Of a stretch of 64,000 nucleotides of DNA, positions 33,443 through 33,607 are shown in pieces. The position numbers and the translations under genes are program-made. The stretch lies in assembly GCF_044647545.1 (NCBI RefSeq), contig NZ_CP172818.1; one strand, 5' to 3'. Below the pieces are notes generated by a model. It was not told the DNA's origin, made no database searches, and saw only the letters and a list, made by a program, of their open reading frames with translations. The stretch is from Escherichia coli. GTDB taxonomy: Bacteria; Pseudomonadota; Gammaproteobacteria; Enterobacterales; Enterobacteriaceae. How positions within the stretch are numbered: position 1 is the first letter of the stretch; every line of letters begins with the position of its first letter.

Positions 33443-33523
33443 GGCGATCTTTATTCCTTGTAAAAGTCCCGTCAGGACCGGATTTTCAACGAATTCTCAC
33501 GACAGAAAATTCTCTTCGGATTG

Positions 33524-33559
33524 TGGTTGTAGTGTCGGATGCGCCGCGAAGGCGGCTTA
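33524..33559. repeat. REP (repetitive extragenic palindromic) element in the nuoM-nuoL intercistronic gap
   Basis: GTCGGATGCGCCGCGAAGGCGGCTTATCCGACCTAC resembles the enterobacterial REP consensus GCCGGATGCGGCG...TTATCCGGCCTAC. Confidence 0.6.
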
Positions 33560-33607
33560 TCCGACCTACGTTCTTATATGCCCAGGGGCAAGCCCACAAT
33601 CCTTAAC

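Follow-up and report, generated by a model that had tools for sequence, protein, structure and literature searches.

An ordinary REP element between nuoL and nuoM of Escherichia coli, the intact half of a decayed pair, is most likely a tolerated passenger

Does a REP element inside an operon divide the transcript that carries it, or can it simply be borne along? The nuoL-nuoM spacer of the nuo operon raises this question. The window examined here, the whole 64-kb stretch of DNA that was analysed, belongs to E. coli, and the ORF list together with the MG1655 gene table placed a 13-gene nuo operon on its minus strand. A 365-nt query around the element found matches in 5,423 of 5,426 complete E. 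coli genomes, over annotated nuoM and nuoL. It had been proposed from the letters of the window (the sequence-only reading) that a REP in this spacer, the only sizeable gap of an otherwise tightly packed operon, separates the proximal nuoA-L transcript from nuoMN.

The coding sequence of nuoL (613 aa; 33608..35449, minus strand) was obtained from the ORF list, from the MG1655 gene table and from what RefSeq annotates at the BLAST match, and its stop codon TGA was read from the sequence at 33610-33608 (minus strand). That of nuoM (509 aa; 31913..33442, minus strand) was given by the ORF list, the BLAST match and the MG1655 gene table. Between these ORFs lies an untranslated spacer of 165 nt (33443..33607, minus strand), whose size and limits the sequence-only reading had given exactly, as judged by the ORF list and the MG1655 gene table; in K-12-type strains the spacer measures 163 nt. 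The RNA of the whole spacer was predicted to fold with −61.2 kcal/mol (z = −4.3). The spacer is the largest gap of the operon but not the only sizeable one, as the nuoB-nuoCD gap measures 93–105 nt and the nuoF-nuoG gap 46–52 nt. Likewise, the tight packing of the nuo genes holds for the junctions with 4-nt overlaps or gaps of 2–15 nt, but not at nuoB-nuoCD and nuoF-nuoG, nor at nuoL-nuoM itself. The nuoB-nuoCD gap (44261-44353, minus strand), second largest of the operon, measures 93 nt if the longest ORF in the window is taken and 105 nt if the start used in K-12 is. It was observed to contain an 8-bp inverted repeat, CCUGUCGG/CCGACAGU, and in the K-12 nuoB-nuoC gap a Term-seq 3′ end has been reported at MG1655 position 2403873 (Adams et al. 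2021, PMC7815308). The nuoG RNA motif of Rfam, RF01748, fills the nuoF-nuoG gap at 40576-40618 (minus strand), with 48 bits against a gathering score of 33. This motif is a conserved hairpin in another intercistronic gap of the same operon, but it is locus-specific and 43 nt long, whereas the nuoL-nuoM REP is a dispersed repeat. No tRNA or tmRNA genes were found in window positions 28000-47500.

The palindrome in the nuoL-nuoM spacer is an element of a known kind, an ordinary E. coli REP. It occupies 33529..33569 (minus strand), as delimited by its inverted repeat, its fold, its alignment to K-12 REPs and its copy number, and reads GTAGGTCGGATAAGCCGCCTTCGCGGCGCATCCGACACTAC in the mRNA sense; on the plus strand it consists of GTAG (33529-32), TGTCGGATGCGCCGCGAAGGCGGCTTATCCGAC and CTAC (33566-69). 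The identification of a REP inside the nuo operon was therefore right, being borne out by copy number, K-12 alignment and hairpin fold; a REP-like palindrome is indeed present in the gap, but the coordinates first given for it, 33524..33559, were off by 5–10 nt from the true span with its GTAG/CTAC ends. Complementarity between the arms (33534-47 and 33552-65) was 86%. The hairpin in the mRNA sense had a predicted free energy of −23.4 kcal/mol (z = −5.25), and none of 200 shuffles was equally stable.

Because the 64-kb window was found to hold no second REP copy, the nuoL-nuoM one being the sole copy there, the REPs used for comparison were drawn from a 49-kb K-12 stretch. The nuo REP could be aligned column by column with eight canonical REPs of K-12, among which were the classical pairs at malE-malF and lamB-malM; this alignment contained 21 invariant columns, including TAGG, GA, AAG and GCATC. 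The nuo copy is of the CGGAT type and differed systematically from the K-12 REPs only at the stem base, where C-G has given way to U-A by compensatory change. In 5,425 E. coli genomes, a 44-nt REP query (E ≤ 10) had a median of at least 34 matching places per genome, a lower bound, and at least 40 pieces in 468 records. Membership of the REP family thus follows from the consensus with 5′ GTAG, from a dispersed and multi-copy occurrence, from a location that is extragenic yet within the nuoA-N transcription unit, and from a stable stem-loop.

This family has reportedly been described under the names REP, palindromic unit (PU) and BIME. The nuo copy shares with it the 5′ GTAG, the GGAT...ATCC stems and the GC-rich upper stem, and it is dispersed, extragenic, co-transcribed and folded into a stable imperfect hairpin as well. 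It differs in being a single intact REP with a remnant, in the U-A pair at the base of the stem and in a locus-specific outer stem. Rfam returned a sub-threshold match to naRNA4 (REP325; RF02564) with 23.2 bits against a gathering score of 59.5 (E = 0.11); identity with naRNA4 was rejected, as the score lies far under the threshold and the match reflects generic REP similarity only. The record NC_000913.3 carries no REP features anywhere, the malE-malF ones included, so that the missing annotation at nuoL-nuoM says nothing about the element. A full-text literature search found no paper on a REP between nuoL and nuoM.

The intact REP is accompanied by the remnant of a second, inverted one. This remnant, GCUUGCCCCUGGGCAUAUAAGAAC (33570..33593, minus strand), was recognised by alignment with Citrobacter sp. 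R56 and Klebsiella spallanzanii and includes a mini-hairpin, UGCC-CCUG-GGCA, at 33579-33590. Both of these species carry two inverted REPs at the orthologous site, and in such an intact pair the counterpart of the remnant is the tail of the left-hand REP. About 20 nt are deleted, and of the left-hand REP E. coli has kept nothing but this tail, so that its element is a decayed REP pair. It was rejected as an intact BIME, which comprises at least two intact alternating REPs, since E. coli has one intact REP and a remnant of about 24 nt.

REP and remnant are flanked by a 9-nt inverted repeat with 100% complementarity, whose left arm, GGAUUGUGG (33594..33602, minus strand), begins 5 nt past the nuoL stop codon, at +6, and whose right arm is CCACAAUCC (33518..33526, minus strand). 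The composite of REP and outer stem was predicted to fold with −45.7 kcal/mol (z = −6.3), a stability comparable to that of the malE-malF REP pair at −52.3 kcal/mol. All eight spacers that hold a REP in this arrangement, three of them from E. coli and five from other genera, retained the outer stem, and its duplex energies lay between −14 and −24.5 kcal/mol. In an alignment of seven REP-bearing taxa, 90.5% of the cells were paired, against 25–44% in partner-shifted controls, and two pairs had changed on both sides; most of the non-Watson-Crick substitutions were G-U in the mRNA sense. The pairing and this G-U pattern hint at a constraint at the RNA level. The sample is small for both E. coli helices (the outer stem and hairpin 2, below), and palindrome arms can co-evolve without selection.

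The REP half of the spacer was more variable within E. coli than the unique 3′ half. Among 4,698 REP-type E. coli genomes, 323 had the perfect right arm of the window, a minority allele that goes with the 165-nt spacer. The remaining REP-type genomes have a K-12-type right arm that differs from that of the window, with 90–95% identity in nearly all of them; in MG1655 and a second E. coli locus (L003) this arm is 2 nt shorter and its pairing is imperfect.

Conservation of the REP across Enterobacteriaceae, which the sequence-only reading had offered as a check, was not borne out: 13% of the E. coli genomes and most related genera are without this REP. In 724 of 5,426 E. coli genomes, O157:H7 strains included, the whole spacer is replaced by an unrelated, REP-free spacer of 230 nt. 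For the wider comparison, 80 Enterobacterales loci were fetched via NuoM, with 78 loci of non-E. coli species having a measurable spacer; in all, 81 spacers were analysed, including those of the window, MG1655, L002 and L003. The length of the nuoL-nuoM spacer ranged from 21 to 271 nt across the Enterobacterales loci. Among the 78 non-E. coli loci the exact E. coli REP sequence did not occur, so that it was seen in E. coli only; species-specific REPs or REP pairs occupied this position in some Citrobacter, Klebsiella, Pseudescherichia and Superficieibacter. Five species had a spacer of 75–76 nt without REP and without outer stem, and in nine species the spacer was shorter than 45 nt (21–41 nt). 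The existence of natural strains and species without the REP indicates that it is dispensable for nuo expression.

The longer spacers were in most cases strongly structured. Among the 72 spacers of at least 45 nt, a more stable fold than in shuffles was predicted for 59 (z < −2), 42 of which reached z < −3. Pairing usually began within 12 nt of the nuoL stop codon, and structured elements recurred at this site in most Enterobacterales.

A side observation concerned the 230-nt spacer of the O157:H7 allele. In E. coli GPEC1209 (L002:401-630) it was 100% identical to that of Salmonella enterica subsp. arizonae (L004). The identity ran 27–74 nt into nuoM, and the flanking coding DNA was E. coli-type, 87.6% identical to Salmonella. 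This looks like a recombination patch of 260–310 nt that was exchanged between E. coli and Salmonella lineages, in either direction.

The spacers of these 724 E. coli genomes contain a 127-nt ERIC-like palindrome, which was also found in the spacer of at least 26 other species, from Salmonella to Pantoea/Erwinia (loci L004, L006, L023, L029, L048, L049 and L075 among them). Three Serratia carried a canonical ERIC in the spacer. Like the REP, the 127-nt imperfect palindromes known as ERIC or IRU are thus occupants of the nuoL-nuoM spacer, but they form a separate repeat family and lie elsewhere, in the 3′ half. The ERIC-like element aligned nearly gap-free from E. coli to Pantoea and Erwinia, and it was more conserved than the third codon positions of nuoM in 171 of 171 pairs (mean 78% vs 62%). 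Compensatory changes were found in 14 of 39 base pairs, and several conserved, mostly G-U pairs fit the mRNA sense only. Rfam assigned the ERIC-like spacers to no family and gave only a weak match to Vibrio AS5, for the canonical Serratia ERIC. Given the conservation of the ERIC-like element, some structured element at the nuoL-nuoM site may be selected. A further ERIC-like copy, 77% identical, was observed between the pheM leader and pheS in the K-12-like strain 6FA (L084:401-518).

The 3′ half of the E. coli spacer is single-copy and was conserved with at least 99% identity in 4,655 of 4,699 genomes. Alignments revealed a conserved single-copy box in it, GAAUUCGUUGAAAAUC (33481..33496, minus strand), which is a candidate element. 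Its core, TTCGTTGAAAATC, was invariant in all ten aligned spacers that are without the ERIC-like element, and the motif T[TG]CGTT[GA]AAA also occurred in 12 ERIC-type or degenerate spacers of other species; the box was missing from the spacer of the E. coli O157 type and of Salmonella. Adjacent to the box is hairpin 2, GGUCCU-GAC-GGGACU (33465..33479, minus strand), which lies upstream of the nuoM ribosome-binding site and was recognised by its pairing in ten taxa, where 92% of the cells were paired and two pairs had changed on both sides. Taken alone hairpin 2 was weak (−6.3 kcal/mol, z = −0.4). The ERIC-like element occupies this place in the 3′ half, not that of the REP: in Kosakonia and in Enterobacter sp. 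Bisph1 it sits between the flanks of hairpin 2, and shortened intermediates exist. Hairpin 2 is probably either the stump left by the deletion of an ERIC-like element or the slot for one.

The Shine-Dalgarno-like AAGGAA of nuoM (33454..33459, minus strand), identified from the sequence, was invariant in two alignments. A candidate small ORF in the E. coli spacer, GTG-AGA-ATT-CGT-TGA, was rejected, its start codon and frame not being conserved in the other spacer types. Immediately 5′ of the nuoM start codon two sequence types were observed, AAGGAATAAAGATCGCC and AAGGGACATACTTAGCT (loci L003-L082). Both types occurred in Escherichia, in Citrobacter, in Enterobacter and in the Klebsiella/Raoultella group, not tracking taxonomy, which suggests that the polymorphism is old or that spacers have been exchanged more than once.

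Could the REP nevertheless be part of something selected? On one account, the site is a conserved structured-RNA slot, in which the ERIC-like element has in most E. coli been reduced to a stump and a REP pair inside a covarying outer stem took over its part, spacers being exchanged between species. We regard this as a minor possibility that still carries some weight. The broader form of the idea, that a structured-RNA slot is selected and that its palindromic fillers (REP pair, ERIC-like element, canonical ERIC, GC-rich hairpins) are interchangeable, with the E. coli REP co-opted as the top of helix 1, appears rather unlikely. Such a slot may, for instance, insulate the initiation of nuoM translation, block Rho loading or serve as a processing site. 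Several observations would fit: the outer stem and hairpin 2 are kept with compensatory changes; the ERIC-like element is more conserved than synonymous sites and has 14 covarying pairs, besides G-U pairs that suit only the mRNA sense; 59 of the 72 long spacers are significantly structured; and the box core TTCGTTGAAAATC is invariant. Nevertheless, nine species make do with spacers of 21–41 nt, which leave no room for structure, and the box is missing from the O157-type and Salmonella spacer. Moreover, templated repair can make the two arms of a palindrome change together even where selection is absent, and survivorship would explain the structural bias if only folded inserts escape Rho polarity. 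Taken overall, a selected structure at this site would thus seem unlikely on the comparative evidence. If folded RNA is selected here, for example because it prevents Rho polarity on nuoMN or sets nuoM translation, the REP would be a co-opted structural module.

The other account, close to what the sequence-only reading had proposed, is that the REP acts as a decay barrier or attenuator: it would block 3′ exonucleases once the mRNA has been cut further downstream, or partly stop RNA polymerase, so that nuoA-L outlasts or outnumbers nuoMN. The precedent is the REP mRNA stabiliser of malE-malF (Newbury et al. 1987, as described in PMC5927463), where a half-life step of 3.5 vs 1 min in malEFG was confirmed; the assay used in that work (PMC5927463) can therefore detect REP stabilisers. 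The nuo REP resembles it in lying in an intercistronic gap of a polycistronic mRNA, 3′ of the gene or genes to be protected, and in the similar predicted stability (−45.7 kcal/mol for the composite hairpin vs −52.3 kcal/mol for the malE-malF pair); the recurrence of structured elements at the site in most Enterobacterales, with pairing usually starting no more than 12 nt from the nuoL stop, also speaks for such a role. It differs in that mal has two intact REPs and half-lives of 3.5 vs 1 min, whereas nuo has one REP and, in the K-12 study of Chen et al., a uniform mRNA lifetime, about 4 min over most of its length. Neither nuo gene names nor b-numbers appear in the supplements of Chen 2015. 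In the data of Dar and Sorek (2018, PMC5927463), nuoA-N was among the 390 operons analysed (S2 Table), and the names nuoK, nuoL, nuoM and nuoN were absent from the table of 47 differentially decaying operons, occurring only in S2.

The Term-seq lists of Adams et al. (2021, PMC7815308) contain no 3′ end at MG1655 2,392,9xx–2,393,2xx, the range that holds the K-12 spacer, so that the Term-seq step expected at the gap was not seen; 3′ ends are listed inside nuoN, nuoL and nuoG and in the nuoB-nuoC gap, and the peak-calling thresholds of the method could hide a minor 3′ end. By direct RNA sequencing, a nuoA-N transcript of 15,256 nt was reported in E2348/69, a strain that may carry either type of spacer (PMC11481537). 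According to single-cell data, expression is delayed the more, the further a gene lies from the major nuo promoter, a trend that holds up to the distal end of the operon. A scan of 33000-34000 found no terminator-like or sigma-70 promoter-like sites in the spacer. An intrinsic (Rho-independent) terminator was rejected, as AACCACAAUCC follows the REP, there is no U tract and the scan of the spacer was negative. Nor did the nuo REP behave as a stabiliser of the malE-malF type in the published K-12 data, which show neither a step in half-life or abundance nor a stable 3′ end at it.

Taken together, the public K-12 data on lifetime, decay and Term-seq, and the missing U tract, do not support a REP that separates the nuoA-L transcript from that of nuoMN. 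At least for K-12 derivatives in exponential growth, from which all of the negative expression data come and whose outer stem is imperfect where that of the window strain is perfect, the data speak against a transcript break that would set nuoA-L apart from nuoMN. The REP may have a slight effect on nuo expression, or one confined to certain conditions.

A decay barrier or attenuator is thus quite unlikely. The uniform mRNA lifetime, about 4 min for most of the nuo genes, the absence of nuo from the differentially decaying operons and the absence of a reported 3′ end in the spacer and of a U tract all stand against it, and so do the 13% of E. coli genomes without the REP and the nine species with spacers of only 21–41 nt. 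The subunits of Complex I, moreover, are needed 1:1.

Translational down-regulation was considered as a further candidate. A REP within 15 nt of a stop codon reportedly causes ribosome stalling and trans-translation. The nuo locus has a stable structure near the stop codon in that the outer stem follows the nuoL TGA at a distance of 5 nt, but the REP itself starts 38 nt past the stop, and the outer stem differs in most E. coli and is imperfect where examined. REP-mediated down-regulation was rejected, as 38 nt is too far for a mechanism that works at up to 15 nt and only the outer stem lies at +6.

A role at the DNA level, in which the REP would bind DNA gyrase, IHF or HU and provide supercoiling relief or nucleoid organisation in a long, highly transcribed operon, is highly improbable: REP pairs bind gyrase and IHF and there is a sub-threshold Rfam match to naRNA4, a REP325-derived nucleoid RNA, but this binding is described for specific multi-REP arrangements whereas only one intact REP is present here, the match reaches 23 vs 59.5 bits, and the REP is dispensable in natural strains.

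We therefore come back to the passenger reading, which we consider probable: an ordinary REP, the intact half of a decayed pair within a longer palindrome, which sets no measurable transcript boundary and is most likely tolerated. A decayed inverted REP pair (BIME) would be nested in a longer palindrome, which fills the first half of the spacer, and the element would be co-transcribed in a single nuoA-N mRNA in which, in spite of its very stable fold, it produces no measurable boundary. Palindromic repeats would have gathered and decayed in this spacer across Enterobacterales. Because nuoM has its own ribosome-binding site, the neighbouring genes are not overlapping or tightly packed at nuoL-nuoM, and insertions there do not break translational coupling. 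Long untranslated inserts would persist only if they are strongly folded, since unstructured RNA would let Rho stop transcription before nuoMN. Such escape from Rho by folded inserts would account for the strong structure of nearly all long spacers, with no need to assume a positive role for them. The effect expected at the RNA level would be at most a transient block to 3′-to-5′ exonucleases during decay.

The REP itself matters little, as REPs in operon gaps are textbook knowledge and the measurements argue against a regulatory effect. The comparative picture is more interesting than the REP, showing a spacer that collects, erodes and exchanges palindromic repeats. The locus is a natural experiment: within E. 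coli, REP-type and ERIC-type spacers stand in near-identical nuo operons, and the spacers of relatives range from 21 to 271 nt. The expression of nuoL versus nuoM across these natural variants would bear on what palindromes do inside operons and on whether Rho polarity decides which of them persist.
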